From: Candidatus Woesearchaeota archaeon
Lineage (GTDB): Archaea > Nanobdellota > Nanobdellia > Woesearchaeales > DSVV01
Reading direction: 5' to 3'
Assembly (NCBI GenBank): GCA_016219865.1
Contig: JACRKF010000033.1
Span: 1,960-65,959 of the forward strand
DNA: 64,000 bases
This document shows, one piece after another, positions 4,724 to 51,433 of the stretch (the stretch's first letter is position 1; every line of letters starts with the position of its first letter). Under the pieces are notes generated by a model. The model had not been told where the DNA came from, searched no databases, and saw only the letters and a list, made by a program, of their open reading frames with translations. Both the position numbers and the translations under genes were made by a program.

Positions 4724-5698
4724 ATGAATAACAGCAACAACAACAACTATCACAATAATAATAATAATTTCAAGACTTCAATTGCAGGATTTAAATTGCA
4801 AAACTATTTCTTCAATGCATCTGGTCCCAGGTGTATGACTATTGATGAATTAACATCTTTAGGTGAATCACAAAGTAGTGTGATATTATCAAAATCATGC
4901 ACATTGCTTCCAAGAGAAGGAAATCCTGAACCAAGGTATTGTGACTTGCCCCATGGTTCAATAAATTCAATGGGTCTGCCAAATCTTGGTTATCAGAAAT
5001 ATGGTGAATTTGCTCCATTATTAAAGAAATATAACAAACCTTATTTTGTAAGTGTTTCAGGTTTAAGCTTAGCTGATAATATTAAGATTATCTCTGATTT
5101 ATCAGATATTCAGGAGATAGCTGCATTTGAATTAAATCTTTCATGTCCCAATGTTATAGGCAAGCCGCAAGTTGGCTATGATTTTAATCAAACAAGACAA
5201 GTATTAGGTGAAGTCATGAGAATAACTAAAAAGCCATTAGGTGTAAAACTGCCTCCTTATTTTGATTTTGCGCATTTTGAAGAGATGGCAAAGATATTAA
5301 ATAATCATAAAATCTCTTTTGTCAGCTGTATTAATTCATTGGGTAATGGATTATTTATTGATGCTGACAGTGAAAAAGCAGTAATAAAACCAAAAGGTGG
5401 ATTTGGAGGTTTAGGTGGAGAATATGTTAAACCTACTGCATTGGCAAATGTAAGAAAATTTTATGAATTGCTGCGAAAAGATATTGCAATCATCGGCGTC
5501 GGCGGCATTGCAACTGGAAGAGATGCATTTGAATTTTTATTATGTGGAGCAAGCGCAGCGCAAGTTGGAACAGCATATCAGCAGCAAGGAACAGCTGTAT
5601 TTGCGCGGCTTGAGAAAGAATTTGCAGCTTTTTTAGAGAAAAAAGGCTGCCATAGTCTTGATGAAGTGAAAGGAAAATTAAAAACTATAAATAATTAA
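4724..5698 (+). CDS. pyrD: Dihydroorotate dehydrogenase (class 1 type), with an unusual poly-Asn N-terminus
   Basis: NASGP..., GLPN(L)G and SCPN motifs of class 1 DHODH. N-terminus is MNNSNNNNYHNNNNNF. Confidence 0.85.
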   Translation: MNNSNNNNYHNNNNNFKTSIAGFKLQNYFFNASGPRCMTIDELTSLGESQSSVILSKSCTLLPREGNPEPRYCDLPHGSINSMGLPNLGYQKYGEFAPLLKKYNKPYFVSVSGLSLADNIKIISDLSDIQEIAAFELNLSCPNVIGKPQVGYDFNQTRQVLGEVMRITKKPLGVKLPPYFDFAHFEEMAKILNNHKISFVSCINSLGNGLFIDADSEKAVIKPKGGFGGLGGEYVKPTALANVRKFYELLRKDIAIIGVGGIATGRDAFEFLLCGASAAQVGTAYQQQGTAVFARLEKEFAAFLEKKGCHSLDEVKGKLKTINN

Positions 5699-5705
5699 TA
5701 AAAAA

Positions 5706-5719
5706 TGAACGAAGTGAAT
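5706..5719 (+). promoter_or_regulatory. 14-nt element TGAACGAAGTGAAT between ATAAAAAA and TTTTTTAT flanks, 6 nt upstream of the pyrC-pyrE ATG
   Basis: Read directly. An A-tract of TATA-box type lies ~24 nt before the ATG; the flanks are mutually complementary. Confidence 0.4.
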
Positions 5720-5724
5720 TTTTT

Positions 5725-7674
5725 ATGTATGACGCAAGATTATTGTTGGAAAATTGCAATATTGTAAATAAGGACGGAACATTCTCTCAAAAAAACATTT
5801 TTATTGAGGATGGAAAGATTGCAAAAATAGAAAGCAGCGCTTTTGTCAATACTGTCTCTTACAAGACAATTGATTGTGCTGGAAAATTAGTATTGCCTGG
5901 ATTAATTGATTGTCATGTGCATTTTCGTGATCCAGGTTTTCCAGAGAAAGAAGATTTCTTGTCAGGAAGTTCTGCAGCAGCAGCAGGAGGAGTAACTTCA
6001 ATTTTAGAGATGCCAAATACAGCTCCAGCAACATTCACAAGAGCATTGCTTGGGCAAAAGAGACATATTGCAAGCCATAAAAGTCTAGTTAATTATGGAT
6101 TCTATATTGGAGCTGGAAATGATAATCTTGAAGAATTAAATATGGCAGAGAACATTGCTGGAATTAAAATATACATGAATCTTACAACAGGACAATTATT
6201 GATTGATGATGATGCTCATTTAAAAAAGATATTCTCCCTAAATAATAAATTATTTGCAGTGCATGCTGAAGGAGAAACATTTGCAAAAGCATTATCTATG
6301 TTTCACGAAAATAACGAAAATAACTCCTCTAGACTATACTTATGCCATGCTTCTTTGCAATCAGAGATAGAAATAATTAGAAAAGAGAAACTAACTGGGA
6401 AAAAAGTCTATGCTGAAGTCTGTCCTCATCATTTATTGTTCACAAAAGAAAATGATTTAGAAAGATTAAACGGCTATGCTATAATGAAGCCAGCATTAGC
6501 AACAGCAACTGACAGAAACTCTTTATGGGCGGCAATTAACGATGGTGCAATTGATATGCTTGCAACAGATCATGCGCCGCATACACGAGCAGAAAAGAAT
6601 AATAATAAACCTGCATTTGGTGTAATTGGTGTTGAATTATTATTGTCATTGGCATTGACATGGTATCATGAAGGAAGATTAACTCTTAGAAGAATAATGG
6701 AATTATGCTGCGAAAATCCTGCAAGGATTTTCGGAATAAAAAACAAAGGTTTTTTAGCAGAAGGCTATGATGCGGATATTGTTGTTATTGATTTAGACGC
6801 TGAGAAGATTGTTAATGATGAATTATTATTTTCAAAAGCAAAAGGTTCTCCGTACAATGGCATGAAACTTAAAGGATTGCCTGTGATAACAATCGTCAAT
6901 GGAAATATTGTTTTTGCTGATGGTATGATTAATGATTCTTATAGGGGAAAAGAATTAATGTTTGGACAGGGTGAAACTATGGCGCAAGATGATTTAGAAA
7001 GTAATGTTAGTGAATCTGTTGCTGTTGGAGAGGACATTACTGAGAAGGTTGCAGAAATTTTATTGGACACAAAAGCAGTGATTGTTAATGCAGAAAAACC
7101 ATATAAATATGCATCAGGAATATTAAGTCCAATTTATTGTGATAATAGGATTGTATTATCCTATCCAGACAAACGAAAGATGGTAGTTGAAAGTTTTTTA
7201 GCATTAATTGAACGAGAAGATATTCAGTATGATGTTATAGCTGGAGTTGCAACAGCTGGAATTCCTTGGGCAGCAATGATTGCAAACAAACTTGACAAGC
7301 CATTAATCTATGTTCGAACAGAGAAGAAAGAGCATGGCAAGCAGAATGCAATTGAAGGAAACCTTGAGATTGGCCAACGCGTGCTGGTTGTTGAAGATTT
7401 AATTTCTACAGGTGGAAGCAGTTTGCAAGCAGTGCAGCATATCAGAAATGCACAAGGGATTGTTGACCATTGTGTTGCAGTCATGAATTATGAATTTGAA
7501 GAAAGCAGAAATAGATTTAATGAGAATGGCTGTACTTTATTGACATTGACTAACTTTTCAGTGCTTAGTAAAATTGTATTAGATAAGAAATATATAGATC
7601 AAGCTGCTTATGATAAAGTAAAAGAGTGGAATTTAATGCCAAAAGAATGGGGGAAAAAGCATGGGTTTGAATAA
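5725..7674 (+). CDS. pyrC: Fused dihydroorotase (N-terminus) / orotate phosphoribosyltransferase (C-terminus)
   Basis: N-terminal DCHVHFRDPG and ATDHAPH (DHOase metal ligands). C-terminal VLVVEDLISTGGS PRPP-binding motif of PyrE. The two halves are joined by an acidic linker to give a single 649-aa ORF. Confidence 0.85.
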   Translation: MYDARLLLENCNIVNKDGTFSQKNIFIEDGKIAKIESSAFVNTVSYKTIDCAGKLVLPGLIDCHVHFRDPGFPEKEDFLSGSSAAAAGGVTSILEMPNTAPATFTRALLGQKRHIASHKSLVNYGFYIGAGNDNLEELNMAENIAGIKIYMNLTTGQLLIDDDAHLKKIFSLNNKLFAVHAEGETFAKALSMFHENNENNSSRLYLCHASLQSEIEIIRKEKLTGKKVYAEVCPHHLLFTKENDLERLNGYAIMKPALATATDRNSLWAAINDGAIDMLATDHAPHTRAEKNNNKPAFGVIGVELLLSLALTWYHEGRLTLRRIMELCCENPARIFGIKNKGFLAEGYDADIVVIDLDAEKIVNDELLFSKAKGSPYNGMKLKGLPVITIVNGNIVFADGMINDSYRGKELMFGQGETMAQDDLESNVSESVAVGEDITEKVAEILLDTKAVIVNAEKPYKYASGILSPIYCDNRIVLSYPDKRKMVVESFLALIEREDIQYDVIAGVATAGIPWAAMIANKLDKPLIYVRTEKKEHGKQNAIEGNLEIGQRVLVVEDLISTGGSSLQAVQHIRNAQGIVDHCVAVMNYEFEESRNRFNENGCTLLTLTNFSVLSKIVLDKKYIDQAAYDKVKEWNLMPKEWGKKHGFE

Positions 7675-7718
7675 ATATCTTTTTATATCATGCATATTTC
7701 TCTCATTTAGGTGATTAG

Positions 7719-8594
7719 ATGAATAAAGAAGAGTCATACATCGAACAACTAACACAATTAGCGCAACAAAGAAAAAGCATTATCTGCGTTGGATTGGATC
7801 CAGATATTGAAAAAATTCCTTTACAGGGAAATTTAGAGCAAGTTATAACTAAATTCTGCGCAAATATTCTGCAAGCAATGATTGATGAGAATGTAACACC
7901 TGCAATAGTCAAGCCAAATTATGCATTTTATTTTCAGCATGGTTTTGAAGGATTAAAAGCATTGCAGAATATTATTGGATTTTGCCGCCAGAATAATATT
8001 CCTGTAATTTTAGATGCAAAAGTTGGTGATATTAAGAAAACAGCGCAAGCTTATGCAAAAGGAATATTTGGCTGGTTAAATGCAGATGCTGTTACAGTCA
8101 ATGCTTACATGGGATCAGATGTGTTAGCGCCTTTTCTCCCTTATTGTAATAAAGGAAAAGGAATCTATGGTTTATTAAAAACTTCAAATGAAAGTTCTGG
8201 AGAATTGCAGGATTTAGAATTAAAAGACAGCAGAAAAGTATATGAAGCTGCTGCTGGCATTCTTGCAAAAAATTATGTTGATGGGAATTTTCCGATTGGT
8301 TCAATTGGCGGAGTAATTGGAGCTACTTATCCTGCGCAGCTTAAGCAATTGAATGATTATTTTACTTCCAGAAATCTTGTTCTGCCATTATTAATCCCAG
8401 GAGTAGGCGGACAAGGAGGATCTGCTGGAGAAGTTGTTCAAGCGCTAGGCGGAAAGAAAAATAAGAATATTTGGACGCACAGAATCAATGTTTCATCTGG
8501 ATTTACTGAAGCTTATTTAAAATACAAGACAGATGATTATGCTGGCGCAGCTGTCAAAGAATTGAAGAAGTTGAATAAAGAAGTGATATTATGA
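7719..8594 (+). CDS. pyrF: Orotidine-5'-phosphate decarboxylase (long type 2 form)
   Basis: ICVGLDPD and ILDAKVGDI motifs; 291 aa. Confidence 0.85.
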   Translation: MNKEESYIEQLTQLAQQRKSIICVGLDPDIEKIPLQGNLEQVITKFCANILQAMIDENVTPAIVKPNYAFYFQHGFEGLKALQNIIGFCRQNNIPVILDAKVGDIKKTAQAYAKGIFGWLNADAVTVNAYMGSDVLAPFLPYCNKGKGIYGLLKTSNESSGELQDLELKDSRKVYEAAAGILAKNYVDGNFPIGSIGGVIGATYPAQLKQLNDYFTSRNLVLPLLIPGVGGQGGSAGEVVQALGGKKNKNIWTHRINVSSGFTEAYLKYKTDDYAGAAVKELKKLNKEVIL

Positions 8595-8839: not shown

Positions 8840-8880
8840 TTATTTTTTGGTCTAGATATTAACTAATTTAAGTTTCATCC

Positions 8881-11800
8881 TCATCCCCTGCCATACACCA
8901 AACTGTAACTATTCTTGCTAGGTCTTATCTCATATCCTTCTCCAGGTTCAAAGCAGGCAAAGTTTCCTGACCATAGTCCTGTTGTTGCGCTATATTGCGC
9001 ATATTCATATCTTGCAGATGTTGTGTTGTAATGATAAATTCTATCACCTGTTGCAGGATTTGCAGGAGAAACGAAAATTGCTGAGAAATTGCATTGTTGT
9101 ATTGCAGAGTAATAACCAAACATATTTATTTCAGCAGAGGTTGTATTCCCCGCAGCATTTGTTGAAGCTGCAATCGAAGTTGTATAATTGTTTAATGGAA
9201 CTTCTCCAACTAATGTGATATTATATGCAGTTGCAACAGGAGAAAATGCATAGGATCTTCCATATTCAAATAAAGTAAAATCGCCAAGCCATCCAGAACC
9301 TGTAAAAAACTGTGAAAGCATTGCTGTTTTTGAAGTTGTATTATAAGAATAAATAATATCATTCTCTGAAGCAGAAGTTAAATTAGAAATATTAAGATCA
9401 TTGACAGTAATAGGCAATGAAATAAGATTCAATTGTATTCCCGCAGTTGGATTGCCAGCTGCTGCTTTAATTAATACATTGAATTTTGCAGCAGTAATAT
9501 TTGTTAGATTATAATTTGTGCCATTTGCTGCAGCAACACGATAAAATCTCTTGTCAACATCTCTTGCATCATTATCTATGTAATATAATTGTGCTGCTGC
9601 GCTTATTGTTGCATTTGCTGTCGGAAGCGCTGCAGCAGAGAGATTGAGGACATAGGATGCATTCTCTGAAAAAAATAATTTATACTGAGAAGCATCTTTA
9701 GCTGAATCCCAAGATATATTAATTGAGTTATTTGCAAGCTTTTTGATTGTAAGATTGCCAGGCATAAATGGTTTGACATCTGTTGAATTAAATATTGTTG
9801 TTGTATTTGCTGCTGTTTGATTGATAAAATTAGTTTCATTGCATATAATATTGTAATTATATGTTGCAGCTCCAACAAATGTTCTGTTGTATTCAAACAA
9901 TGCTTTTGTTGCATTATACATCATATTCGCAGTCACATCTGTAAACTGGATGCTGCAATTTGCAGTAGTAATTGGTGTTTTTGAAGTCACATTTGTGTAA
10001 TTTGCAAAAAAGTTTGCTATTTGATTTTCATATGTTGCGCCAAGACGATAAGGCGCAGCATCTTGCGTTGAATCCCAAGTAATTAATGAAGCATTTTCTC
10101 GTGCAGTAATATTAGCTAATCCTATTGTATAAAAAGTAAGATTTGTTGCAGTTGCTGTAATTATTGTGCAGCCATCCGCGGCAGAATTGCAAACAGAACC
10201 ATTTTTCATAGGCACTGGATTTGCATAGCCGGTATTGTATAATGAAAATGTTATGTTGCTATTTAATGTGCTGTGCAGATGTGAATTATTAAACAGGATA
10301 TTATTCCTGCTGATGTTTGCATTTTTATCAAAATCTTGAAATGCAGCAACCGCAAAATCATTAAATATTATTTTCCCATTCGATGTATTCTCAAGAATAA
10401 AGTAGGATGTATTATATAATGATGGAATAACAAGTGGATTTGATGTTATTCCATTAAATGTGTTTATTTGTGGTGAAGCATTTAATCCAGCAGAGATTAC
10501 TAATGAAAATGGCTGTGAACCTTGAGCAATATTATACGCTGAGACATTAACTTGATAACTTCCAGTTTGTGTATTGTTAGTATTAATAATAACCTGCTCA
10601 ACTGTATTTCTATCATCTGAGGACGCATTAAATGGAAATAAAAAGTTATTGCCAAGAAATTGCGTTCCATTTGGTGCTGTTGCAATCAGATTAAGATCAT
10701 TCACTAATGAAATTGCTGCATTTGCTGTTCCTTTGTAATCTGTCCAGACTAAAGTTATTTTTATTGGAGTTGATGCATTAACAACTGTAAAATTGTAAGT
10801 TGAAGATTGACCTGTTGTCAATTCAGTGCTATTATCAATATACACAAGATATCTTGATCCTGATGGAATTAATGTATTAGTCATATTTACTCTGCCCCAT
10901 CCGCTTGTATTGCTTGGAAATCCATAGCTTAGCTCTTGGGCGCCATTAATTAGTGTTGCTTTAAGCAATGCTCCAGAAACATTATTGTAGAATTTGTTGA
11001 GCATGAAATCCTGACGCAACAACACAAGCATGCCTGCTGCAGAAGGTGTTGCCATGCTTGTGCCTGAGCAAGTAGAATAATTGCCATTTGAAGAAAATGC
11101 GGAATTGCAAGATGGACTTCCTGAGCTGATTACAGTTGATTTTGTTGAAACAACATTTGTGCCAATTACAACAACATCTGGTTTTGTCCTGTTATCAGCA
11201 GCTGGTCCAAGACTGCTTGTCGATGAGATTAAAGCAGGATTTCCTGAACTTCTGCTGCTTTGAAGGTTGCCAACAGAAACTGCATTTTTCGCAGTTGCTG
11301 GATAAAATACTGTGTTTGCGCCAGAACCGCCAGAATTTCCTGCTGCAACAATTAATAATGCATCTTTTCTGTTCCACATAAAATCATCAACAGTTACAGC
11401 TAGTGATTCATACGCATTAGTATCGCCGCCATAACTATTGCTATGCACTCTAGCGCCATCTAAATATTGATTATGAAGAATTGTTTTATATGTTGATGTT
11501 GTTCCTAAATAAATTGATCGTGAACCATCATCATCACCTGCTGCATAGAATGAGATATTGGCAGCATATGCCATTCCTTTAAATTGACCAGCAGATAATG
11601 TGCCATTTCCAGCAGCAGATCCTGTTACGTGCGTGCCATGGCCATTTAAATCATTTGGTGAAGAACAACTAGCGCCGCTTAATGCGCAAACTGTATTGTT
11701 AGTTTTAATATTGACAATACGATTATCAAAATCCAGCAAGATATCATTTAATACAGAAAGATTATCAACACCAGTATCTAAACCAGTATCTAGTATGCCA

Positions 11801-12600
11801 ATCACTTGGTTTTTTCCATTAAGATTAAGAAAATTCCATACAGGAACAACCTCATGAGTTTGCGCAACCAAATCATTCAATACATGCACTGGTGAAGGAG
11901 CATCAATAATCTGAACTTCATCAACAGCAGAAATTTGTTGAATATTCTCTTGCGCAGTTTTTATTCGTATTACTTCATTATCAGCAGCTATTATCTCTAA
12001 ACCATTAACCTCTTTTAATTTTTCTGCAACTAATGCTGAATTTCCATCTTCATAAAGATAAAGATCAAGTGTAACTTTATTATTTTTGTCTGGAACAATT
12101 GTTGCAATTGTTTCTGTGTTCAATTTATACTCTGGGTTGTAGTCAATTATTGCTTTTACAAATTCAAATGTTTGTATTTTGTTTAAGTTTACTGTTGGTA
12201 TTTTCACAATAAATGAATTCTGGGGAATATATGAATATATTTTAACATCATATGTTTCCAATGCCTTTTTCCATGAATCTCTAACAGGACCGGCAAATTG
12301 AAGAACATAAAAAGCTTCGCTTTTATAAAAGACTTCCTCGCTGCGCTCGTCGTCTTTTATTTCATTAATAATTAGCGGTTGCTGTTTTTGTTGTTCAGTA
12401 ATTGTCTGCGATTTAAAATAAATATTAGCATCAGCTTTTTTATATTCTTCTGGATGATATTCAGTAAGTGCTGTTTTAACAGCATTATATTGCTTTATTT
12501 CTTGTTTATACGCAAAAGAGAATAAACTAATTATAGTTATAAGTAATAGAACTGCAACTATTGCTGCTAACCCAACTTTTTTCATAATAAAATCATTCAT
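8881..12600 (-). CDS. Secreted subtilisin-like serine protease (peptidase S8) with a very long Asn/Thr/Ser-rich C-terminal stalk
   Basis: N-terminal signal anchor. Catalytic triad motifs VIGILDTGLD (Asp), HGTHVTGSAAG (His), GTSMATPSAAGMLVLL (Ser) and oxyanion AAGNSGG. The ~700 C-terminal residues carry dozens of N-x-S/T sequons. Confidence 0.85.
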   Translation of the reverse strand: MNDFIMKKVGLAAIVAVLLLITIISLFSFAYKQEIKQYNAVKTALTEYHPEEYKKADANIYFKSQTITEQQKQQPLIINEIKDDERSEEVFYKSEAFYVLQFAGPVRDSWKKALETYDVKIYSYIPQNSFIVKIPTVNLNKIQTFEFVKAIIDYNPEYKLNTETIATIVPDKNNKVTLDLYLYEDGNSALVAEKLKEVNGLEIIAADNEVIRIKTAQENIQQISAVDEVQIIDAPSPVHVLNDLVAQTHEVVPVWNFLNLNGKNQVIGILDTGLDTGVDNLSVLNDILLDFDNRIVNIKTNNTVCALSGASCSSPNDLNGHGTHVTGSAAGNGTLSAGQFKGMAYAANISFYAAGDDDGSRSIYLGTTSTYKTILHNQYLDGARVHSNSYGGDTNAYESLAVTVDDFMWNRKDALLIVAAGNSGGSGANTVFYPATAKNAVSVGNLQSSRSSGNPALISSTSSLGPAADNRTKPDVVVIGTNVVSTKSTVISSGSPSCNSAFSSNGNYSTCSGTSMATPSAAGMLVLLRQDFMLNKFYNNVSGALLKATLINGAQELSYGFPSNTSGWGRVNMTNTLIPSGSRYLVYIDNSTELTTGQSSTYNFTVVNASTPIKITLVWTDYKGTANAAISLVNDLNLIATAPNGTQFLGNNFLFPFNASSDDRNTVEQVIINTNNTQTGSYQVNVSAYNIAQGSQPFSLVISAGLNASPQINTFNGITSNPLVIPSLYNTSYFILENTSNGKIIFNDFAVAAFQDFDKNANISRNNILFNNSHLHSTLNSNITFSLYNTGYANPVPMKNGSVCNSAADGCTIITATATNLTFYTIGLANITARENASLITWDSTQDAAPYRLGATYENQIANFFANYTNVTSKTPITTANCSIQFTDVTANMMYNATKALFEYNRTFVGAATYNYNIICNETNFINQTAANTTTIFNSTDVKPFMPGNLTIKKLANNSINISWDSAKDASQYKLFFSENASYVLNLSAAALPTANATISAAAQLYYIDNDARDVDKRFYRVAAANGTNYNLTNITAAKFNVLIKAAAGNPTAGIQLNLISLPITVNDLNISNLTSASENDIIYSYNTTSKTAMLSQFFTGSGWLGDFTLFEYGRSYAFSPVATAYNITLVGEVPLNNYTTSIAASTNAAGNTTSAEINMFGYYSAIQQCNFSAIFVSPANPATGDRIYHYNTTSARYEYAQYSATTGLWSGNFACFEPGEGYEIRPSKNSYSLVYGRG

Positions 12601-12663: not shown

Positions 12664-12694
12664 CTGAGTGAGCAAAGCGAACTCGCAAATACTA
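12664..12694 (+). promoter_or_regulatory. 31-nt element CTGAGTGA-N7-GAACTCG-N5-ACTA (copy A), 55 nt upstream of the HTH gene
   Basis: Shares 19 fixed positions at identical spacing with copy B. Embedded in the 9-bp inverted repeat AGTATTTGC...GCAAATACT. Confidence 0.35.
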
Positions 12695-12748: not shown

Positions 12749-13273
12749 ATGGAAGCAAAACTGTCCATATTGCAGCCTTTTTTCAAAAAGTCAGGGGAAG
12801 CATTCCATATCAGAGAAGTTGCTAAACTTACTGGTATAAACCATACAACTGTCAGAAAATATCTGCAGGAGATGGTTAAAGAGAATATTCTGGCTATAAA
12901 AGAAGATAAACTCTATGATATGTATATAGCATCACATTCTCTTGCATTTCATAATATACAGCTATATTATATATTAGAAAGTGTGCGAAAATCCAAGTTT
13001 CTTGCAGATATTGAAAAAAACGATAAAGATGCTGCAGTTGTCTTATTAAATTCTTTTAAATCTGATGATTCAATAGAACTATGTGTTATCTATCAGAAGA
13101 ATAATGAATATTCAGTGAAAGAATTAGAAAAATATTTTGGCAAGAAAATAGTTATGCACTATCATAATGCAAAGAAATTTCATAGTTATCTAAAGAATGA
13201 TGCATTGTTATTTCAACACATCTTAAATGGCATTGTTATCAAAGGCAAGATTACAGTTGCTGATTTTTTATGA
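12749..13273 (+). CDS. Winged-helix (HTH) domain protein, putative transcriptional regulator
   Basis: N-terminal HIREVAKLTGINHTTVRKYLQEMV helix-turn-helix. It is the first gene of a co-directional six-gene island. Its start codon sits in the palindrome ACTTCCAATGGAAGC. Confidence 0.45.
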   Translation: MEAKLSILQPFFKKSGEAFHIREVAKLTGINHTTVRKYLQEMVKENILAIKEDKLYDMYIASHSLAFHNIQLYYILESVRKSKFLADIEKNDKDAAVVLLNSFKSDDSIELCVIYQKNNEYSVKELEKYFGKKIVMHYHNAKKFHSYLKNDALLFQHILNGIVIKGKITVADFL

Positions 13274-13284
13274 ACGGAGTGAAT
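13271..13284 (+). promoter_or_regulatory. 14-nt element TGAACGGAGTGAAT flanked by TTTTTTA / AAAAAAA, 7 nt upstream of the ATG at 13291
   Basis: Read directly; overlaps the stop codon of the preceding gene. Confidence 0.4.
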
Positions 13285-13290
13285 AAAAAA

Positions 13291-14442
13291 ATGGATAAGA
13301 AAGCAATCAAATTAACAAGCGAGGCATTGATTGAAGCTGTATTGATTACAATTGTAATTATAGCATTTGCTTTCTACATTAGTTCATTAAGAGAAGACAC
13401 ATTAATTGAAAAGACAGCTATTATTAGAGAATTATCAATGCTTGCAAATACAGTGCAGGCAAGCCCTCAAGATGCGCTTGTAATATATAATAAAAACAAT
13501 CTCAACAAATATCATTTTTCATTTAAAGAGAATTATGTGCAGATTAAACAGCAGGATTATGCAACAGTATTATATCCTTATTACACAGATATGATGCTTT
13601 CAATGCTGCTGCTGGATATAGAAAAAAAAGATCAACTTGTATTCTCTAGTTTCAAAGATAGTTTTATAATTTCTCCTGAAACAGTTGTTGGCTTTTCTTC
13701 GCAAAGAGGAGATAGTTTCAATCCAGCTGCTGCATCAGGTGGCATAGTTATTCAAAACAATCAGCAAAAAGATCCGCAATTAGCAGCAAGCTTTGCTAAT
13801 TGTCCGCTTATAAAATCAACAGTTGCATTGCAGACAATTGTCTTAGATTCAGGTAAAGGAGATTATATTGCAATGCCTGATGAGACCCAAGAAGTATTTG
13901 TAAAAGATTTTGGCGTGCAGAATAAAGCTCTTGGTACAAGCGAGCATGAACTTACTATGAAAGCTGTTATTTTATTAGAGACAGCATTAAGATTAAAAGT
14001 TAAGAACACACTCCTCAAAAAAACAAGAACGCAGAATGAAGATGAAAGTTTTTCTTATTCTGAGAGGTTGCAAAGATTTGATGCAGATGACAATCTTGTA
14101 ATAAGCATCCGTATGTATCAGGCGCAAGAGACTGAGAATAAGATTACCTTATATATATTAGCAGGAAAAAATGAATTGCAGAATCAAAAGATTGCATGTT
14201 TATTGATGAACGAATTGCAAGAAAAGTTATCAGGATTAACGCATAAAATTGAGATACGTTATCTTGCAGAAACAGATGATAGTTATCCATTATTAGAAAA
14301 GAACAGCAAAGAAAATGATAATTTAGCTGTTTTATTAGAGCTAGGCAATATTAACAATAAAGATAATGCTTTGTACAGCCAATTAGATGCTGCTGTTGAT
14401 GCGATAGCTGCAGCAGTTGCTGCATATAACAATGATAGATAA
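13291..14442 (+). CDS. Hypothetical membrane-anchored protein (KKA-type N-terminus)
   Basis: Start reassigned from 13270 to the ATG at 13291, because 13271–13284 is the recurrent 14-nt upstream element. N-terminus MDKKAIKLTSEALIEAVLITIVIIAF (basic + TM). Confidence 0.5.
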   Translation: MDKKAIKLTSEALIEAVLITIVIIAFAFYISSLREDTLIEKTAIIRELSMLANTVQASPQDALVIYNKNNLNKYHFSFKENYVQIKQQDYATVLYPYYTDMMLSMLLLDIEKKDQLVFSSFKDSFIISPETVVGFSSQRGDSFNPAAASGGIVIQNNQQKDPQLAASFANCPLIKSTVALQTIVLDSGKGDYIAMPDETQEVFVKDFGVQNKALGTSEHELTMKAVILLETALRLKVKNTLLKKTRTQNEDESFSYSERLQRFDADDNLVISIRMYQAQETENKITLYILAGKNELQNQKIACLLMNELQEKLSGLTHKIEIRYLAETDDSYPLLEKNSKENDNLAVLLELGNINNKDNALYSQLDAAVDAIAAAVAAYNNDR

Positions 14443-23015: not shown

Positions 23016-23040
23016 GAGAATTTTGCAAAGCAAAATTCTC
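23016..23040. repeat. Palindrome GAGAATTTTGC-AAA-GCAAAATTCTC (copy b), just 3' of the RPA-like gene
   Basis: Identical 25-mer to copy a. Confidence 0.8.
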
Positions 23041-24235: not shown

Positions 24236-24260
24236 GAGAATTTTGCTTTGCAAAATTCTC
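24236..24260. repeat. Palindrome GAGAATTTTGC-TTT-GCAAAATTCTC (copy c, opposite loop orientation), just 3' of the 24262..24732 gene
   Basis: Same arms, loop TTT. Confidence 0.8.
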
Positions 24261-27109: not shown

Positions 27110-27217
27110 AAGAAATTCGGAATCATTGTGTATTAATAAATATTTTGAATTGTGTCGTATTAGAACGACAACTATATATATAATAACTTCTCAAAATAAG
27201 AATTGGTTAATAAAAAA

Positions 27218-27231
27218 TGAACGGAGTGAAT
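27218..27231 (+). promoter_or_regulatory. 14-nt element TGAACGGAGTGAAT between ATAAAAAA and TTTTTAT, 6 nt upstream of the antiporter ATG
   Basis: Read directly. Confidence 0.4.
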
Positions 27232-27236
27232 TTTTT

Positions 27237-28454
27237 ATGAGCACTTTAATAATTATCTTACTTTGCCTATTCCTGGCATATATCTTTTCTAATATTTGCA
27301 GGCATCTTAATGTTCCGCGAGTAATTGGGCAGATTGCAGTTGGATTATTGCTTGGCATACCTGTTATAAAAATAATGTTGTTTGATAATACTTCACTTTC
27401 AATGATTGAAAGCTTAGCGCAAATTGGGATTATTCTGTTATTCTTCTTTATTGGATTAGAGATTGATACAAGCATTTTTAAGAGGGATTTTAAGGAAGCT
27501 AGTTATATCTCATTATTTAATACAACATTGCCATTATTGCTTGGTTTTATAGTATGTAAGTTTTTGCTAGGTTTTTCTGTAACTGCTAGTTTAGTTATAG
27601 CTATATCATTATCTGTCAGCGCGCAAAGTGTCAGTATTGATTTCCTTGAAGAGTTAAGATTAATAAAAACAAGAATAGGAAATCTTATCATTACAGGTGG
27701 AGCTGTAGATGATATTTTCGAGTTGTTATTGATTAGCATTGTTTTTTTGTTTATTGAAGGAACAACTTCACAATATGGGTTTCTGAAATTAATTGTTGAA
27801 TTATTTATATTTACGATAATTATTCTTATTTTTAAGATCTATGTTATACCAATGATTCTTCATTCTGCTGAAAGTGAGAAATCAACAGCAACATTATTCA
27901 TGGGTGCATTGATTATTGTATTATTAATGGCAGCATTAGCTGAGTTTCTTCATGTTGGCGCATTAGTTGGAGCATTGTTTGCCGGATTAACTGTGAGAAA
28001 AATATTATTAGATGGAGATAATAAAAAGCCATGGGAAGAGCATTTGATCTCCAATACAATCCACATTATTGCATTTGGTTTTCTTGTACCCATGTTTTTT
28101 ATCTGGATTGGCTTAACAACAGATATTCCTGCAATTATTGATAATATAGGATTGGCAGGAATATTCTTTGCAATTGCCTGCATTGGAACAATTGGTGGTA
28201 CAATCTTAGGTGTAATGCGAGCGCAAGGAAGCTTTAATGAAGGTTTATTGATAGGAATTGGATTAAATCCAAAAGGAGATGTTGAATTGGTTTTAGCTGC
28301 ATTTGCGCTTCAGGCAGGAATAATCTCAAAAGGTGTGTTTTCAGCATTAGTATTAATGGCAATTGCAACAACATTGTTTAGCCCAATATTATTCCGATAT
28401 ATCATTACTAAGGAGCATATTTTGAAGAAGATTAAAGCTGGAGTTAGGTTATGA
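27237..28454 (+). CDS. Cation:proton antiporter (CPA/Na+-H+ exchanger family)
   Basis: About 12 TM segments with the FFFIGLEID motif. Start reassigned from the track start 27126 to ATG 27237 (MSTLIIILL), because 27218–27231 is the recurrent upstream element. Confidence 0.75.
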   Translation: MSTLIIILLCLFLAYIFSNICRHLNVPRVIGQIAVGLLLGIPVIKIMLFDNTSLSMIESLAQIGIILLFFFIGLEIDTSIFKRDFKEASYISLFNTTLPLLLGFIVCKFLLGFSVTASLVIAISLSVSAQSVSIDFLEELRLIKTRIGNLIITGGAVDDIFELLLISIVFLFIEGTTSQYGFLKLIVELFIFTIIILIFKIYVIPMILHSAESEKSTATLFMGALIIVLLMAALAEFLHVGALVGALFAGLTVRKILLDGDNKKPWEEHLISNTIHIIAFGFLVPMFFIWIGLTTDIPAIIDNIGLAGIFFAIACIGTIGGTILGVMRAQGSFNEGLLIGIGLNPKGDVELVLAAFALQAGIISKGVFSALVLMAIATTLFSPILFRYIITKEHILKKIKAGVRL

Positions 28455-35310: not shown

Positions 35311-35365
35311 AAAAAACATCCTCCCTTTAGTAGTCATTACTCCTATGTTAAAAAACAATAAAAAA

Positions 35366-35379
35366 TGAACGAAGTGAAT
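35366..35379 (+). promoter_or_regulatory. 14-nt element TGAACGAAGTGAAT inside the 9-bp inverted repeat CAATAAAAA...TTTTTATTG, with no downstream plus-strand gene
   Basis: 27-mer nearly identical to the 5701–5727 copy. Lies inverted ~56 nt upstream of the minus-strand gene starting at 35310. Confidence 0.35.
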
Positions 35380-35391
35380 TTTTATTGTTTT

Positions 35392-35856
35392 TTAGTTATT
35401 TAAACAACATACTTCTCCTTTATTGTCGCAATTAGTATATAATACATAATTAATTTTTCCATCTGTTGATTTGCAGCTTTCTTTTTTTATGCAGCTTCCT
35501 TGTTGTGATTCACAAGCAAGATAGCAGCATACTTGTTCACTTGCTGAGTTATCTGTAGTTGTGCTATCAGAACCATCTGCAGATTTTAACGGATTTGTTT
35601 TTCCGCAGGATAATGCTAATGTTTGTCCTTTTTGATCACTGCATTCTGTTGAAGACATGCATTTGCCTTGTTTTGACTCGCAATCATTAAGGCTGTATCG
35701 AAATAGAGATGATTGTTTGCCAAATATAAATAACAATACAAAAAGAACTACTAATGCAAGTATTACAATCACAACTGTATTTATTGCTAAATCTGCTTTC
35801 TTATTTTTTTGGTTCATAGTTTCAACTCTTTTTTTACTATTGTATTTATTAATCAC
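35392..35856 (-). CDS. Small Cys-rich secreted protein with a duplicated CES-QG-C module
   Basis: N-terminal ...MNQKNKKADLAINTVVIVILALVVLFVL. Two copies of the module CESKQGKC...C...VCC / CESQQGSC...C...VCC. Confidence 0.45.
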   Translation of the reverse strand: MINKYNSKKRVETMNQKNKKADLAINTVVIVILALVVLFVLLFIFGKQSSLFRYSLNDCESKQGKCMSSTECSDQKGQTLALSCGKTNPLKSADGSDSTTTDNSASEQVCCYLACESQQGSCIKKESCKSTDGKINYVLYTNCDNKGEVCCLNN

Positions 35857-37554: not shown

Positions 37555-38322
37555 TCAACCATACATTACCTCACATCTGAGCATATTCTGATTATCTAAC
37601 AGTTGTTCTTCATCAAGTATTGAGAGACGAAATTCATCATCATCAGTGTTTGAAACAGGAGTTGGCTTATAATCCACAATATTATGATAAATTAGATAGT
37701 ATGTTTTTCCAGCTGCAATTTGTGATGAATAGAACCAAAATAGATCCAACTGACCATTCTTAGTGAAGTAAGAGTAGTAATTTTGATCGCTAAAAGGCAG
37801 AGTTGCTTTTGATAAATAAGTTGTAAACGCAGTTCCTAATTCAATTGGTTGTATAGCTTGTGTGCTATCAATCTGAAATTGCGCGCAAAATACACATACA
37901 TTTTTGTAGCTTGCTTTATTTCTATCAAATACACTTCCGCCTGCTTCTCCAAAGTTTTTCCAGCAGATTCTCATTCTTTCTGCTAACACAGGATAAACTA
38001 CTTGTGAGTTTAATGCTTTATATGAATCAACAATTGTCTTTCTATTGCCGTCTGCTATAGCTATTGGTGTTTTTTTCTGATCTATTTCAAGATGATCTCC
38101 ATAGAAATTAATATATGTTCTTGGGCAATCAATTGGAACAGGAGATGAATCACCTGATATTCCAATTTTCGTTGCTTTATGCACTGCTGCAGTTGCTGCG
38201 CATTTTTCATCTTTTTCCTTTGAAATTAATTTTGCTAGCAATGGAGCTTCTATTGAGAGAAATATTATTAAAGAAACAACTAATATAATTATAGCATTAA
38301 TTCTGGAAATACCTCTTTTCAT
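37555..38322 (-). CDS. Pilin-like surface protein, paralogue of 36628..37527
   Basis: MKRGISRINAIIILVVSLIIFL (K-R-G followed by a hydrophobic stretch, resembling a class III signal). Shared DCPRTY...RICWKNFGEAGG...YKNVCVFC block. Confidence 0.5.
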   Translation of the reverse strand: MKRGISRINAIIILVVSLIIFLSIEAPLLAKLISKEKDEKCAATAAVHKATKIGISGDSSPVPIDCPRTYINFYGDHLEIDQKKTPIAIADGNRKTIVDSYKALNSQVVYPVLAERMRICWKNFGEAGGSVFDRNKASYKNVCVFCAQFQIDSTQAIQPIELGTAFTTYLSKATLPFSDQNYYSYFTKNGQLDLFWFYSSQIAAGKTYYLIYHNIVDYKPTPVSNTDDDEFRLSILDEEQLLDNQNMLRCEVMYG

Positions 38323-38349
38323 TATAAAAACTCCTCCAAGTCGTTTTTA

Positions 38350-38451
38350 TTATAAACGCAATAGTCTTAAAATACCATAAACTATAGTAATTAAAATAAT
38401 TAATACTGCCATATATATAATTATTCTAACTAATGATGCTTTCTTATTCAT
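38350..38451 (-). CDS. 33-aa single-TM micro-protein (not in the ORF track)
   Basis: Manual translation gives MNKKASLVRIIIYMAVLIILITIVYGILRLLRL. Preceded by the 14-nt element (TGAACGAAGTGAGT) + TTTTTTATG. Confidence 0.35.
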   Translation of the reverse strand: MNKKASLVRIIIYMAVLIILITIVYGILRLLRL

Positions 38452-38456
38452 AAAAA

Positions 38457-38470
38457 ACTCACTTCGTTCA
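38457..38470 (-). promoter_or_regulatory. 14-nt element TGAACGAAGTGAGT (minus strand), 6 nt upstream of the 33-aa micro-ORF
   Basis: Read directly on the reverse complement. Confidence 0.35.
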
Positions 38471-38511
38471 ATTCTTATTCTTTAGAAGCAGAGGTATTTA
38501 AATGTAGTGTA

Positions 38512-38537
38512 GAGAATTTTGCTAAAGCAAAATTCTC
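38512..38537. repeat. Palindrome GAGAATTTTGC-TAAA-GCAAAATTCTC (copy d), between the divergent pilin-like island and the glycosylation cluster
   Basis: Same arms, 4-nt loop. Confidence 0.8.
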
Positions 38538-43921: not shown

Positions 43922-43963
43922 CGAAAGCTTTTAAAAGGAACCTTTATTCTCAAACAATACGGC

Positions 43964-43977
43964 ATTCACTTCGTTCA
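43964..43977 (-). promoter_or_regulatory. 14-nt element TGAACGAAGTGAAT (minus strand) as the loop of a GC stem TACGGC...GCCGTA, 26 nt upstream of the plus-strand oxidoreductase gene
   Basis: Read directly. Inverted relative to the downstream gene. Confidence 0.35.
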
Positions 43978-44002
43978 GCCGTACGTATGGTGTTGTATTT
44001 TC

Positions 44003-48766: not shown

Positions 48767-48794
48767 TAAACATAATAATATAACTGGTGATATA

Positions 48795-49016
48795 ATGCTA
48801 ATTTGTAAAACAAGGAAATGGGGTTCTTCATTGGGGATAATAGTCCCTAAAAAAGCTGCTGAGAGATTGCACCTTTATGAAAATCAAGAAGTAATTATAG
48901 AGATACAACCAAAAGATAATGTTTTAAAAGACCTCTTCGGATATGCAAAAGGAAGAATAAGAAGAAATACAGATGAAATAATTGCAGATGCAAGAAAAGA
49001 ATTAGGTGTTGATTAG
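48795..49016 (+). CDS. AbrB/MazE-type (SpoVT-AbrB) antitoxin
   Basis: KTRKWGSSLGIIVPKKAAERLHL is the swapped-hairpin AbrB motif. Stop TAG abuts the next ATG. Confidence 0.6.
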   Translation: MLICKTRKWGSSLGIIVPKKAAERLHLYENQEVIIEIQPKDNVLKDLFGYAKGRIRRNTDEIIADARKELGVD

Positions 49017-49379
49017 ATGTATTGTTTAGACACATATGCCTTATGGGAGATACAATTTGCGAATGAGAAATTTGTTAAGTTCCTGAAAGAAGACTTTGTC
49101 ATCACAGAATGGACGTTGATAGAATTCTATAAAACACTATTAAGAGAATATAATCAACAAACAGCAGATTATTGGTCCAGACGATTATTACCTCATTGTA
49201 AAAATATTTCAATTGAGATAGCATTGAAATCTGTTTTATACCAGCATGAAAACAAAAAAGAAAATATGTCGTTATTTGATTGCATTGGATATATTTATTC
49301 ACAAGAAAACAACCTTGTTTTTGTAACAGGAGATAAAGCTTTTAGGAACAGAGCAAAAGTATTATTTATACAAAAATAA
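49017..49379 (+). CDS. PIN-domain toxin (VapC-like)
   Basis: LDTYAL N-terminal acidic motif; C-terminal FVTGDKAF PIN motif. Confidence 0.55.
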   Translation: MYCLDTYALWEIQFANEKFVKFLKEDFVITEWTLIEFYKTLLREYNQQTADYWSRRLLPHCKNISIEIALKSVLYQHENKKENMSLFDCIGYIYSQENNLVFVTGDKAFRNRAKVLFIQK

Positions 49380-49383
49380 AGAA

Positions 49384-50556: not shown

Positions 50557-50671
50557 AGTTTAAACTTAACCCCAGCTACACTCAGAATGATGAATTTTTT
50601 AAGTATAAATATTATTGTTGTAATACCATATAACAACATTTATATAACAGATATTCTAAATATAAAAATTG

Positions 50672-50685
50672 TGAACGAAGTGAAC
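50672..50685 (+). promoter_or_regulatory. 14-nt element TGAACGAAGTGAAC inside the perfect 10-bp inverted repeat ATAAAAATTG...CAATTTTTAT, abutting the TrmB-regulator ATG
   Basis: Read directly. The 3' arm overlaps the first two nucleotides of the start codon. Confidence 0.4.
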
Positions 50686-50692
50686 AATTTTT

Positions 50693-51433
50693 ATGGATAC
50701 GCAAACAACATTACGCGAACTTGGATTAGCAGGAAATGAAGCGCGAGTTTATCTTGCATTATTAGATTTAGGTTCAAGTTTAGCTGGAGAAATAACAAAA
50801 AAGTCAGGAGTAAACAGAACAAATGTATATGACGCATTAGAAAAATTGATTGAAAAAGGATTAGCATCATATGTTATTTCCACAAACAGGAAATATTTCG
50901 AAGCAGCTCCCCCAACTAAATTCATCTCATTTCTAGACGATAAGAAGAAAGAAATAGAAAGAAAGAAACAGCTTGTGCAGCAATTGCTGCCAGAGCTCGA
51001 AGTTAGAAGAAAATTATCTAAAGAACCGCAAGAAGCAACAATCTACAAAGGAAAACAAGGATTAAAATCAATCGCAGAAGATGTGTTAAATCAAAAACAA
51101 ACAATGTTTGTTTTTGGCGCAGAAGGAAAATTTAGTGCAATGTTTACCCATTATGCTGAACAATGGCATATGCGAAGAGGAAAGTTAAAGATTCCATTAA
51201 AAATGATATTCAACGAAAAAGTAAGAGAAACAAAAACAAAAGCAAACTTTCCATTAGCAGAGCTTCGCTTCATAACACGAGATGAGACACCCGCAACAAC
51301 ATGGATCTATGGCAATACAGTTGCAATCATTGTCTGGAGCATACAGCCATTAGCAACAGTCATCAGAAGCAAAGAAGTAGCAGATTCCTATAAAATATTT
51401 TTTGATGGAATGTGGAATAATGCGAAGGAATAA
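50693..51433 (+). CDS. TrmB-family transcriptional regulator
   Basis: LRELGLAGNEARVYLALLDLGSSLAGEITKKSGVNRTNVYDALEKL TrmB HTH. Its own upstream region carries the 14-nt element inside a 10-bp inverted repeat. Confidence 0.8.
   Translation: MDTQTTLRELGLAGNEARVYLALLDLGSSLAGEITKKSGVNRTNVYDALEKLIEKGLASYVISTNRKYFEAAPPTKFISFLDDKKKEIERKKQLVQQLLPELEVRRKLSKEPQEATIYKGKQGLKSIAEDVLNQKQTMFVFGAEGKFSAMFTHYAEQWHMRRGKLKIPLKMIFNEKVRETKTKANFPLAELRFITRDETPATTWIYGNTVAIIVWSIQPLATVIRSKEVADSYKIFFDGMWNNAKE

Follow-up and report, generated by a model that had tools for sequence, protein, structure and literature searches.

A recurrent tandem G·A mini-hairpin at gene boundaries of a Woesearchaeota genome and its possible spread as a REP/MITE-like element

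REP/REPIN sequences (RAYT, IS200-like Y1 HUH) are short imperfect palindromes that occur in many copies in intergenic spacers at gene ends, in both orientations, with genome-specific expansion and occasional inverted doublets. These traits are shared by a repeat family found in the window, by which we mean the whole 64-kb stretch of DNA analyzed here, where one inverted doublet spans 54319-54395. The family also matches REPs as imperfect palindromes of 20-40 nt with many intergenic copies; its elements are about 27-46 nt long. However, REPs conserve the stem and a 5′ GTAG/CGTC tag and leave the loop free, whereas the window element has an invariant apex, varying arms, and no tag. Of all copies, only those in the CPR contig L154 bear a tag; the window contains no RAYT gene, and the identical apex crosses domains, unlike REPs.

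MITE-like repeats (Correia/NEMIS, ERIC, RUP, BOX) are likewise small non-autonomous repeats beside genes, at sites not conserved in relatives, and can provide a promoter, a processing site, or structure close to an RBS. They measure at least 100-150 bp, with terminal inverted repeats and TSDs, whereas the window element, at about 30 nt, amounts to little more than a single hairpin and has no established TSD. Rolling-circle/HUH origin hairpins (such as the CRESS-virus nonanucleotide stem-loop) and integron attC sites share with it the logic of a conserved apex or structure on a free stem sequence, and they act as folded single-stranded DNA, as the window element may. The latter has no linked Rep or integrase gene and is unrelated to known nick sites and attC R/L boxes. 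Structured SD leaders and RNA thermometers share the A/U-rich hairpin, the purine-rich SD-like sequence, a 3′ arm reaching the AUG, and a spacing of 7-9 nt, but thermometers are conserved with their gene, whereas the window sites are non-orthologous, part of the copies lie antisense or outside transcripts, and phages and regions behind tRNAs contain the exact core as well.

The window comes from a MAG of a Woesearchaeota (DPANN) archaeon. The motif TGAACGRAGTGAAY matched exactly at six positions (5706, 13271, 27218, 35366, and 50672 on the plus strand and 43964 on the minus strand), against an expected count of 0.00 from 100 dinucleotide-preserving shuffles of the window. A seventh copy at 38457(−) carries a single mismatch (A13 to G), and two more matches with two mismatches each are within chance range. 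Complementary flanks bracket all seven copies, and the flanked repeat reported in the preliminary description is real. All seven of its copies were recovered, but the family is larger, with at least three further members whose variant apexes lie at 12669-12681(+), 54371-54383(+), and 54330-54342(−). The family CM gave 10 matches with E < 1e-3 in the window, all of them intergenic or at gene ends, in both orientations and with overlap of a gene 3′ end. The apex is conserved and the outer arms vary by locus, as had been stated, but the stems are less varied than claimed, the arms ATAAAAAA/TTTTTTAT being common to copies 1, 3, 4, and 5.

An ATG follows 5-7 nt past the end of five motif copies (5725, 13291, 27237, 38451(−), and 50693). 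Copy 1 (5698..5726, plus strand, ATAAAAAA-TGAACGAAGTGAA-TTTTTTAT, 41.4 bits) occupies the entire 26-nt pyrD|pyrC-pyrE spacer, and its final AT already belongs to the start codon at 5725. Copy 2 (13264..13290, plus strand, TTTTTTA-TGAACGGAGTGAA-TAAAAAA, 34 bits) gives the upstream ORF 12749-13273 its stop codon, which is the TGA of the core, together with a non-conserved C-terminus, and the following gene begins with its ATG at 13291. Copy 3 (27210..27238, plus strand, ATAAAAAA-TGAACGGAGTGAA-TTTTTTAT, 38.9 bits), found too in the independent Logan contig L131, is immediately 5′ of the Na+/H+ exchanger gene starting at 27237, and copy 7 (50662..50694, plus strand, ATAAAAATTG-TGAACGAAGTGAA-CAATTTTTAT, 40.6 bits, z −3.2) immediately 5′ of the TrmB-family gene starting at 50693. 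The decayed copy 5 (38449..38479, minus strand), which has the A13 to G change and an imperfect left arm, lies 5 nt upstream of ATG 38451 of a 33-aa hydrophobic micro-ORF. In copy 4 (35349..35394, plus strand, z −3.2) the core is central in a 16-bp A/T palindrome, TAAAAAACAATAAAAA...TTTTTATTGTTTTTTA, between two minus-strand genes and antisense to both, and overlaps the stop of ORF 35392-35856(−). Copy 6 (43956..43986, minus strand, 26.1 bits), with GC arms TACGGC/GCCGTA and T14 bulged, is antisense and 20 nt upstream of ATG 44003, the native GGTG SD of that gene being kept intact.

Among the variants, C1 (12655..12694, plus strand, 31.9 bits) has the apex TGAGCAAAGCGAA, with G4-C10 for A4-U10 and a 10+3 bp stem, and sits in a divergent spacer upstream of both promoters. 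C2 (54359..54395, plus strand, apex TGAGCAAAGCGAT, 12-bp stem, 35.3 bits) is an antisense copy that overlaps the secY(−) stop and forms, with variant D inverted next to it, a REPIN-like doublet. Variant D (54319..54353, minus strand, 33.1 bits) has the apex CGAACAAAGTGAG, with C1-G13 for U1-A13, and the arms AAAAAATC/GATTTTTT; it is sense-oriented, and its T-run adjoins the ATG at 54319. A candidate relative E at 38324..38350 on the minus strand (ATAAAAAC-GACTTGGAGGA-GTTTTTAT) scored 15.7 bits with an E of 0.37, which leaves its membership uncertain; it carries a canonical GGAGG at the apex and precedes the ATG at 38322.

The conserved part had been taken for an open 14-nt loop, which it is not. 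The core folds on itself through U1-A13, tandem G·A/A·G (2/12 and 3/11), A4-U10, and C5-G9, so that the real loop is the triplet G-R-A, of which only the middle base varies. Position 14 (T/C) pairs with the base preceding the core; this is an a-T pair in most copies, while copy 7 has g-C. Covariation was significant, with 80.8% of cells paired, a score reached by 0 of 500 shuffles and higher than that of slid controls, which bears out the earlier view of a structured element that is not merely an SD. Pair 4/10 was AU in 10 cases and GC in 3, pair 5/9 CG in 12 and UA in 1, and pair 1/13 UA in 10 and CG in 1; the variant apexes, in the window and elsewhere, show compensatory change of both inner pairs. 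The pattern GA-NN-NNN-N′N′-GA with arms of at least 5 bp occurred 112 times in 1.88 Mb of loci versus 2 in reversed-sequence controls, and the pattern occurred 8 times in the window versus 0.07 in shuffles. The conserved part is thus a self-folding mini-hairpin with an N1-N13 pair, tandem sheared-type G·A/A·G, two Watson-Crick pairs, and a purine triloop. Compensatory change between apex types shows long-term selection on the fold, which is compatible with a functional RNA too. The window had no Rfam 15 match at the gathering threshold, and related loci matched only tRNAs and unrelated RNAs.

Tandem G·A pairs next to UGA...GUGA occur in the U4 non-canonical stem-loop and box C′/D′, and the hammerhead has U7-G8-A9/G12-A13-A14. 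K-turns and K-loops (L7Ae) share with the element UGA...GUGA and the G·A/A·G flanking a short helix and loop, but a K-turn has a 3-nt bulge that the element lacks, and a K-loop is open while the 2-bp helix of the element covaries (4/10 AU to GC, 5/9 CG to UA), forming a triloop; a K-turn/K-loop identity was therefore rejected. Compared with the hammerhead helix II closure, the element lacks CUGA and helices I/III. In DNA, T-GA-A on both strands is the pyrimidine-GA-purine context that stabilizes sheared G·A pairs, and the C-GAA-G of the apex resembles the very stable d(GCGAAGC) mini-hairpin.

The core is not confined to archaea and recurs in unrelated contexts. In CPR bacteria the identical 13-mer forms the tips of hairpins that follow tRNA genes, where the hairpin separates a tRNA from a structured, tRNA-like RNA downstream of it, and a 22-nt pattern gave nine bacterial MAG matches. 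The exact core occurred in 107 metagenome stretches, 25 of which had arms of at least 6 bp versus 1.75 expected, and also in viral contigs. In L154, a PF01797 Y1 (IS200-type) transposase gene is flanked and interrupted by GTAG-tagged REP hairpins whose loop is the core. The REPs of three RAYT homologues did not contain the core, which is thus not tied to that enzyme family.

Within the Woesearchaeota, the family CM found 10 matches in the 64-kb window versus 2 in 106 kb of five relatives (E < 1e-3). The pyrD|pyrC spacer of relatives lacks the element, being TTTGGGGTAACTCA in L251 and containing a different hairpin in L252/L253, and the copy-2 junction is empty in L252, which has a copy at a different, non-orthologous site. 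The element is absent from the orthologous TrmB, pyrD|pyrC, and copy-2 sites of relatives, and its expansion in this genome appears to be lineage-specific.

With confidence just short of even, we favor a REP/MITE-like element that spread at the DNA level and whose purine-rich apex (GGAG/GAAG-UGA) may serve as an SD leader, so that sense copies survive before start codons. The empty orthologous sites, both orientations, about 10 copies in 64 kb, and the cross-domain identical apex support such a spread, in which a trans-acting enzyme encoded outside the window would probably recognize the element as a single-stranded hairpin. We infer mobility rather than observe it, since there is no transposase, integrase, HUH, or RAYT gene in the 64-kb window and no polymorphic filled/empty site was seen within a single population. 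Against this reading, the apex is conserved while the arms vary, which is unlike classical REPs and MITEs, and there is neither a GTAG/CGTC tag nor a clear target-site duplication. The four copies with ATAAAAAA/TTTTTTAT are flanked by AT...AT, which is either a 2-bp TSD or part of the palindrome, and the arms of the other copies differ. The 3′ arm is also set tightly on the AT of the ATG in four copies, which could equally reflect a dedicated function or a target preference.

The persistence of insertions would then be filtered by selection. Most first genes in the window appear leaderless, with a TATA box 19-26 nt before the ATG, and motif-bearing genes have 21-32 nt extra in this layout. An insertion between TATA and ATG would make a leader, tolerated only if it contained a ribosome-binding sequence. 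The sense apex would supply GGAG/GAAG-UGA 7-9 nt before the ATG, which could explain why sense copies accumulate right before start codons, where they would act as SD-bearing leader or intercistronic hairpins; antisense copies would be retained only where they follow a stop codon or leave a native SD intact downstream. GGAG or GUGA (4-5 nt) stands 7-9 nt before the ATG in five copies, the 16S gene being outside the window, and the earlier remark that the core is SD-like holds for this purine-rich sequence, at a usable spacing. However, only 4-5 bp are complementary, a modest number, and the distance to the ATG exceeds by 3-4 nt that of native SDs, which are GGTGAT-like and about 4 nt before the ATG. 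Three copies are antisense, and inverted copies speak against a role as nothing but an RBS, as had been pointed out.

A wider form of the mobile-element reading is possible but doubtful. Here the tandem-GA mini-hairpin (N-GA-NN-triloop-N′N′-GA-N′) would be the cis signature of an undescribed hairpin-based mobile or recombination system common to DPANN archaea, CPR bacteria, and their viruses, which would sit at the tips of existing palindromes or build palindromes by flank copying, pile up small structured units at the 3′ ends of tRNAs, and reshape translation initiation in genomes of the leaderless type.

We consider it unlikely that the element is a dedicated cis-acting RNA hairpin of 5′ leaders and intercistronic regions, bound by a trans factor reading the tandem G·A, such as an L7Ae-type protein (K-loop UGA-N5-GUGA) or another RNA-binding protein, and controlling translation initiation, mRNA processing, or stability. 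The maintained fold fits such a role, as do the seven of eleven family members (D and candidate E counted) that are sense with a 3′ arm ending at the start codon, and the CPR hairpin between tRNA and tRNA-like RNA resembles a processing site. The D′-box-like UGA and C′-box-like GUGA match the archaeal K-loop in order and spacing, but the closed 2-bp helix and the missing bulge speak against an open K-loop or a K-turn. Moreover, local transcription runs opposite to three strong copies, another lies upstream of both divergent promoters, the sites are not conserved among relatives, and the linked genes are unrelated in function, as had been noted before. The predicted starts of copies 5 and 7, judged from the conserved TATA, fall at the core and would place the left arm outside the mRNA.

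A transcription boundary element is improbable. Its T5-T6 run would terminate upstream archaeal transcription, the mirror A-run would serve the opposite strand, and the left arm, rich in A/T, would be a TATA-like box from which leaderless transcription restarts at the ATG. In copies 1, 3, 4, and 5 the core is followed by a T-run of at least 5, and the left arm, ATAAAAAA or ATATAAAA, is found some 25 nt ahead of the ATG (for the TrmB gene, ATATAAAA at 25 nt). Copy 4 and the second L161 copy resemble terminator hairpins after stop codons, and tRNA genes precede many bacterial copies. However, most copies precede start codons, and the arms are not always A/T, being GAA/TTC or GC in copy 6, L161 copy 2, and viral copies. 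A terminator has no need of a 13-nt invariant apex, the ancestral upstream TATA is retained at copies 5 and 7, and in L129 the element sits downstream of a −10 box and ahead of the ATG.

The copy before the TrmB-family gene had suggested an autoregulon, and a site between TATA and ATG is typical of archaeal repressors. The motif was not found upstream of four Woesearchaeota TrmB orthologues (65-77% aa identity) nor in about 80 kb of their flanks. Common to them is another palindrome, TTGTTGT-N11-12-ACAACAA, with a TATA box after it that stands 21-24 nt from the ATG. Its counterpart in the window, TGTTGTAATACCATATAACAACA with the TATA box TTTATATA (50616..50646, plus strand), is outside the hairpin element and likely the real TrmB operator and promoter, the hairpin adding roughly 21-25 nt between TATA and ATG. 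A TrmB control site was therefore rejected, and a duplex operator of this or another transcription factor that defines a regulon is very improbable: no dyad-symmetric duplex site of the motif is conserved upstream of orthologous targets (TGTTGT-N11-ACAACA is conserved instead), the strictly conserved G·A/A·G at 2/12 and 3/11 break the dyad symmetry that a dimeric factor needs, the element is found in bacteria and viruses, and the linked genes are disparate. Individual copies may act as a promoter-proximal operator or RBS-sequestering switch, as originally proposed, but nothing was found in support of a regulon.

A sequencing, assembly, or adapter artefact is scarcely credible: every match is in a metagenome assembly (9 of 9 genome-collection matches are MAGs) and the reverse complement of the core shares about 10 nt with a nanopore adapter, but at 10 sites the gene context continues without a break to either side of the copy, the independent Logan assembly of a short-read run reproduces copies, apex variants with compensatory changes exist, and the contig names (k141, NODE_) indicate short-read assemblers.

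A second palindromic repeat family, unrelated to the first, was observed in the same window, which indicates that this genome accumulates such repeats.

The core TGAACGRAGTGAAY was present in six exact copies in the window, compared with 0.00 expected from dinucleotide-preserving shuffles, and a seventh copy at 38457(-) differed by one mismatch, in agreement with the seven copies counted in the preliminary description. The complementary flanks reported there were likewise confirmed at every copy by reading the surrounding 80 nt, and two of the copies were independently reproduced in Logan assemblies of a short-read run. In five copies, the end of the core was separated from an ATG by 5-7 nt. 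Downstream of copy 1 (5706+; ATG 5725) lies a pyrC-pyrE fusion, downstream of copy 3 (27218+; ATG 27237) a Na+/H+ exchanger gene, downstream of copy 5 (38457-; ATG 38451(-)) a hydrophobic micro-ORF of 33 aa, and downstream of copy 7 (50672+; ATG 50693) a TrmB-family gene. Copy 2 (13271+) precedes the ATG at 13291, and the TGA of its core is the stop codon of the preceding ORF. The copies at 35366(+) and 43964(-) are antisense to the surrounding genes.

All strong sense copies in the window abut an ATG and place an SD-like GGAG/GAAG-UGA 7-9 nt upstream of it. The antisense copies at 35366 and 54371 are located after stop codons, the antisense copy at 43964 lies 20 nt upstream of the ATG of a gene whose own GGTG is untouched, and the variant copy at 12669 is situated upstream of both divergent promoters. 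The distribution of copies in the window thus looks filtered by selection. The micro-ORF of copy 5 (38350-38451, minus strand; MNKKASLVRIIIYMAVLIILITIVYGILRLLRL) is bordered on one side by this copy and on the other by a further A/U-armed hairpin tipped with GGAGG, which precedes the gene at 37555-38322.

The preliminary description had regarded the core as a loop within co-varying stems. A structured, covarying hairpin was indeed found, but the supposed 14-nt loop itself folds into a hairpin. RNA folding gave the pairs U1-A13, A4-U10, and C5-G9, with G2/A3 facing G11/A12 as a tandem G.A/A.G 2x2 loop, and the apex is closed by the triloop G6-R7-A8, the middle of which, R7, is the sole variable position. 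Position 14 pairs with the base preceding the core, giving a-T in most copies but g-C in copy 7. Family members with altered apices were added by a structural scan together with a census of hairpins, comprising TGAGCAAAGCGA(A/T) at 12669(+) and 54371(+), in which G4-C10 replaces A4-U10, and CGAACAAAGTGAG at 54330-54342(-), directly before an ATG, in which C1-G13 replaces U1-A13. Outside the window, the apex TGAGTGAAACGAA, with both inner pairs changed (G4-C10, U5-A9), was present in the Woesearchaeota relative L251 and, beside the standard type, in the viral contigs L053 and L082.

Among 13 aligned members, 80.8% of the cells were paired, and the covariation score was reached by 0 of 500 shuffles, while slid controls scored below the true register. 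The inner pairs of these members were AU in 10 and GC in 3, and CG in 12 and UA in 1. For the pattern GA-NN-NNN-N'N'-GA within arms of at least 5 bp, the 1.88 Mb of fetched DNA gave 112 occurrences and the reversed controls 2, and the window gave 8 versus 0.07 in shuffles. Because of this covariation and the excess of the pattern over shuffled and reversed controls, selection acts on the apex fold, be it formed by RNA or by single-stranded DNA. T-GA-A on both strands and C-GAA-G as closure are contexts that confer unusual stability in DNA on sheared G.A pairs and GNA mini-hairpins. Written as a DNA oligonucleotide, the apex hairpin is d(TGAACGAAGTGAA), and its T-GA-A context and C-GAA-G closure would be compatible with a single-stranded-DNA intermediate.

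The window is archaeal, encoding S4e, L32e, archaeal S17, and SecY at a GC content of about 32%, and its TrmB protein is identical to NCBI HZA96_04185 (Candidatus Woesearchaeota, DPANN, MAG), encoded on a 189,767-bp contig. The element upstream of this gene had been taken as a hint of an autoregulated TrmB regulon, with the element as operator, which the orthologous loci contradict. In four other Woesearchaeota with TrmB orthologues of 65-77% amino acid identity, the motif was missing upstream of all four genes and in about 80 kb of flanks, and each gene was instead preceded by TTGTTGT-N11-12-ACAACAA, a TATA box, and 21-24 nt leading to the ATG. The window retains a TTGTTGT-type palindrome, unique in the window, and the TATA box at 50616-50646, with a TATA-to-ATG distance of 46 nt in which the hairpin is the extra sequence. 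Including the window, this palindrome stands immediately before the TATA box in five Woesearchaeota (the others being L132, L133, L134/135, and L137), and it is the likely autoregulatory operator of the TrmB-family gene.

At other syntenic junctions, the element was likewise missing from the relatives. In L251, the closest relative, with a PyrC/E 79% identical, the pyrD|pyrC spacer is TTTGGGGTAACTCA. In L252 (9915-9942, equivalent to 5324-5351 of L253), the same junction carries a different perfect hairpin, ATTTTGTGCAA-TGAATA-TTGCACAAAAT, and therefore one spacer hosts different palindromes across genomes. The junction of copy 2 is empty in L252, where the preceding protein has a different C-terminus, and the one standard copy of L252 occupies a non-orthologous site upstream of a promoter. 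With the covariance model of the family, the window (64 kb) yielded 10 members at E<1e-3, whereas five relatives, over 106 kb, yielded just 2. Since the orthologous sites are empty and the model counts so uneven, the comparison shows that the element has expanded in one lineage and turns over between sites, and that it does not mark a conserved cis-regulatory site.

The same apex was also found far outside the Woesearchaeota. The 22-nt pattern A5-core-T4 matched nine unrelated bacterial MAGs, several with further complementary flanks, against an expectation that we estimate at roughly 0.03-0.4; no Woesearchaeota genome was matched in this collection of representatives, which does not include the source genome. 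A 19-nt pattern matched 107 metagenome stretches with GC contents of 25-62%, 25 of which had arms of at least 6 bp (1.75 expected), the longest being 14 bp. About 10% of the viral matches to the core plus TT had complementary flanks of at least 4 bp. As in the window, copies stood directly before start codons in two further fetched loci, L129 and L161, and the second copy of L161 forms the tip of a GC-stem/T-run hairpin following a stop codon. A gapped-pattern search for empty sites in viral contigs returned only filled ones, and the phage hairpin region had no blastn match in annotated phages. In a non-coding region of the two viral contigs (L082, reverse strand, ~11700-12550; L053, 6800-7100), iteron-like words TTCTACAAGTGCTTATAAG and TTCTATAGAA interleave with adjacent apex-type pairs (..GUAGUGAAACGAA.. 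then ..UGAACGAAGUGAA..); this arrangement is possibly an origin, or else a regulatory array.

Taken together, these results point to a selfish or mobile palindrome acting at the DNA level, because the copies are highly identical and occur in both orientations, orthologous sites lack the element while one relative carries its copy elsewhere, one copy overlaps a gene end, a single genome shows expansion, and the element is found in unrelated lineages and within other repeat families. In the window, a TATA-like box is positioned 19-26 nt ahead of the ATG in at least nine genes, a leaderless-type layout, whereas the SDs of operon-internal genes are GGTGAT-like, with a spacing of about 4 nt to the ATG. 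Insertion between the TATA box and the ATG of a leaderless-type promoter would create a leader. This leader would need a ribosome-binding sequence of its own, which the sense orientation alone would supply; we infer this step. The arms could belong to the inserted unit, as four copies share the arms ATAAAAAA/TTTTTTAT, they may be pre-existing palindromes with the core landed at the center (copy 4 at 35366 and a REP loop in the bacterial locus L154), or they may have been copied from a flank. No transposase, integrase, or HUH gene was found within the 64-kb window.

A dedicated protein-bound RNA hairpin controlling translation or processing is possible, and both the covarying fold and the placement at start codons would suit it, but as a general explanation it is opposed by the site turnover and by the antisense and untranscribed copies. 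A terminator/promoter boundary element would account for the A/T arms, but leaves the invariant apex and the GC-armed copies unexplained. An artefact is very unlikely; the resemblance to a nanopore adapter was dismissed, because the assemblies were built from short reads and the gene context is intact. The element also failed tests for K-turn/K-loop, hammerhead, and Rfam membership: the bulge of a K-turn is absent, the inner pairs covary as they would not in an open K-loop, and the hammerhead likeness is confined to the helix-II closure. A CsrA site would fit the G variant alone, and archaea to our knowledge lack CsrA. Spacing and symmetry are wrong for cre/LacI-type or TGM operators, and, despite a resemblance to 5S rRNA (GAAGUGAAACG) and to the sarcin-ricin loop, the element folds differently. 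Rfam searches of the window and related loci at gathering and permissive thresholds returned nothing but tRNAs, a full-text literature search for the motif strings only unrelated primers, and the literature on REP/RAYT, DPANN repeats, and tandem-GA hairpins yielded no description of the element.

The element behaves like REPs or small MITEs, but its logic is inverted, with the apex conserved and the stems free, and it lacks their tags and crosses domains. It is regarded here as a variant of interspersed palindromic repeats. L154 has a PF01797 Y1 transposase gene that is both flanked and interrupted by GTAG-tagged REP hairpins, and the loop of these hairpins is formed by the core. The core is not a RAYT-family signature, because tblastn of this transposase against all fetched DNA matched L154 alone and three homologous RAYT loci have REPs with plain short loops that lack the core. 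The IS200-like gene itself (7605-8267, on a Patescibacteria-type contig) contains an in-frame insertion of its own REP-like element. In several database homologues, an excess length of about 40 aa over the others suggests that this insertion is present there too.

At least 23 of 112 hits to the core lie within 12 nt after the 3' end of a same-strand tRNA, where the hairpin is a spacer between the tRNA and a unit of 115-145 nt. This unit draws on acceptor and T-arm sequences of the tRNA itself: it begins with the tRNA's own 5'-acceptor strand and continues with a conserved hairpin GAGCAGGCAAACUGCUUUGCCUGCG, an anti-T-arm segment GGAAUCGAAA, and one or two further hairpins, and at its end the tRNA 3' end is repeated, often with CCA. 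The unit has a strong fold (z -5 to -10), follows tRNA genes for Gly, Arg, Leu, and Val in CPR-type bacterial contigs (L199 1255-1500, L201 2732-2990, L220 4146-4400; also L146, L194, L238, L226, L166, L176, L171, and others), and matched no Rfam family. A group I intron or PBS-like reading was rejected, as neither a splice-site G.U nor an Rfam signal was found, and no conserved neighboring gene was found around the tRNA-linked copies. The unit may represent a tRNA-like RNA, or else an integrated element in miniature, and the result points to a possible uncharacterized family of tRNA-like RNAs that follow the tRNA genes of CPR bacteria. In AT-rich, archaeal-looking contigs (L185, minus strand, ~11480-12140; also L244, L144, L180, and L191), tandem units of ~110 nt follow the tRNA, each ending in a tRNA 3'-end repeat (direct repeat, e.g., GTGGGGCTA). 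Two unit types alternate, one of which carries the hairpin, and the units resemble mini-insertions stacked up where a tRNA serves as attachment site.

That the element marks an undescribed hairpin-based mobile system common to DPANN, CPR, and their viruses is a speculative proposal, to which we give a minor but real probability. If the reading of the element as a selfish or mobile palindrome is right, there would be interspersed repeats that form a class by virtue of an apex that is conserved and folds on itself, rather than by conserved stems. This class would be shared letter for letter among ultra-small archaea, ultra-small bacteria, and viruses of like habitats, and would thereby mark genetic exchange among these episymbionts. 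A selfish hairpin that turns leaderless genes into leadered, SD-dependent ones would also offer a route to a changed mode of translation initiation. In practical terms, the results caution against taking such repeats for regulons and provide a compact structural pattern and a model for their annotation.

Two further features of the window were observed. The pyrC-pyrE fusion (dihydroorotase-orotate phosphoribosyltransferase, 5725-7674) is set in a carB-pyrB-pyrI-pyrD-pyrCE-pyrF cluster and is conserved in a small Woesearchaeota clade (L251, L252), while most other search matches were unfused proteins of ~400 aa. A second palindromic family unrelated to the element, GAGAATTTTGC-N3-4-GCAAAATTCTC, has four exact copies versus 0 expected (3197-3221, 23016-23040, 24236-24260, and 38512-38537) and a variant at 59999-60029. 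Of 253 fetched loci, only the contig from the same genome contained this family. With its conserved stem and free loop, it could represent a terminator, or else a REP-like repeat of the classical kind; the copies lie mostly at or after gene 3' ends, one of them inside the last codons of carB.
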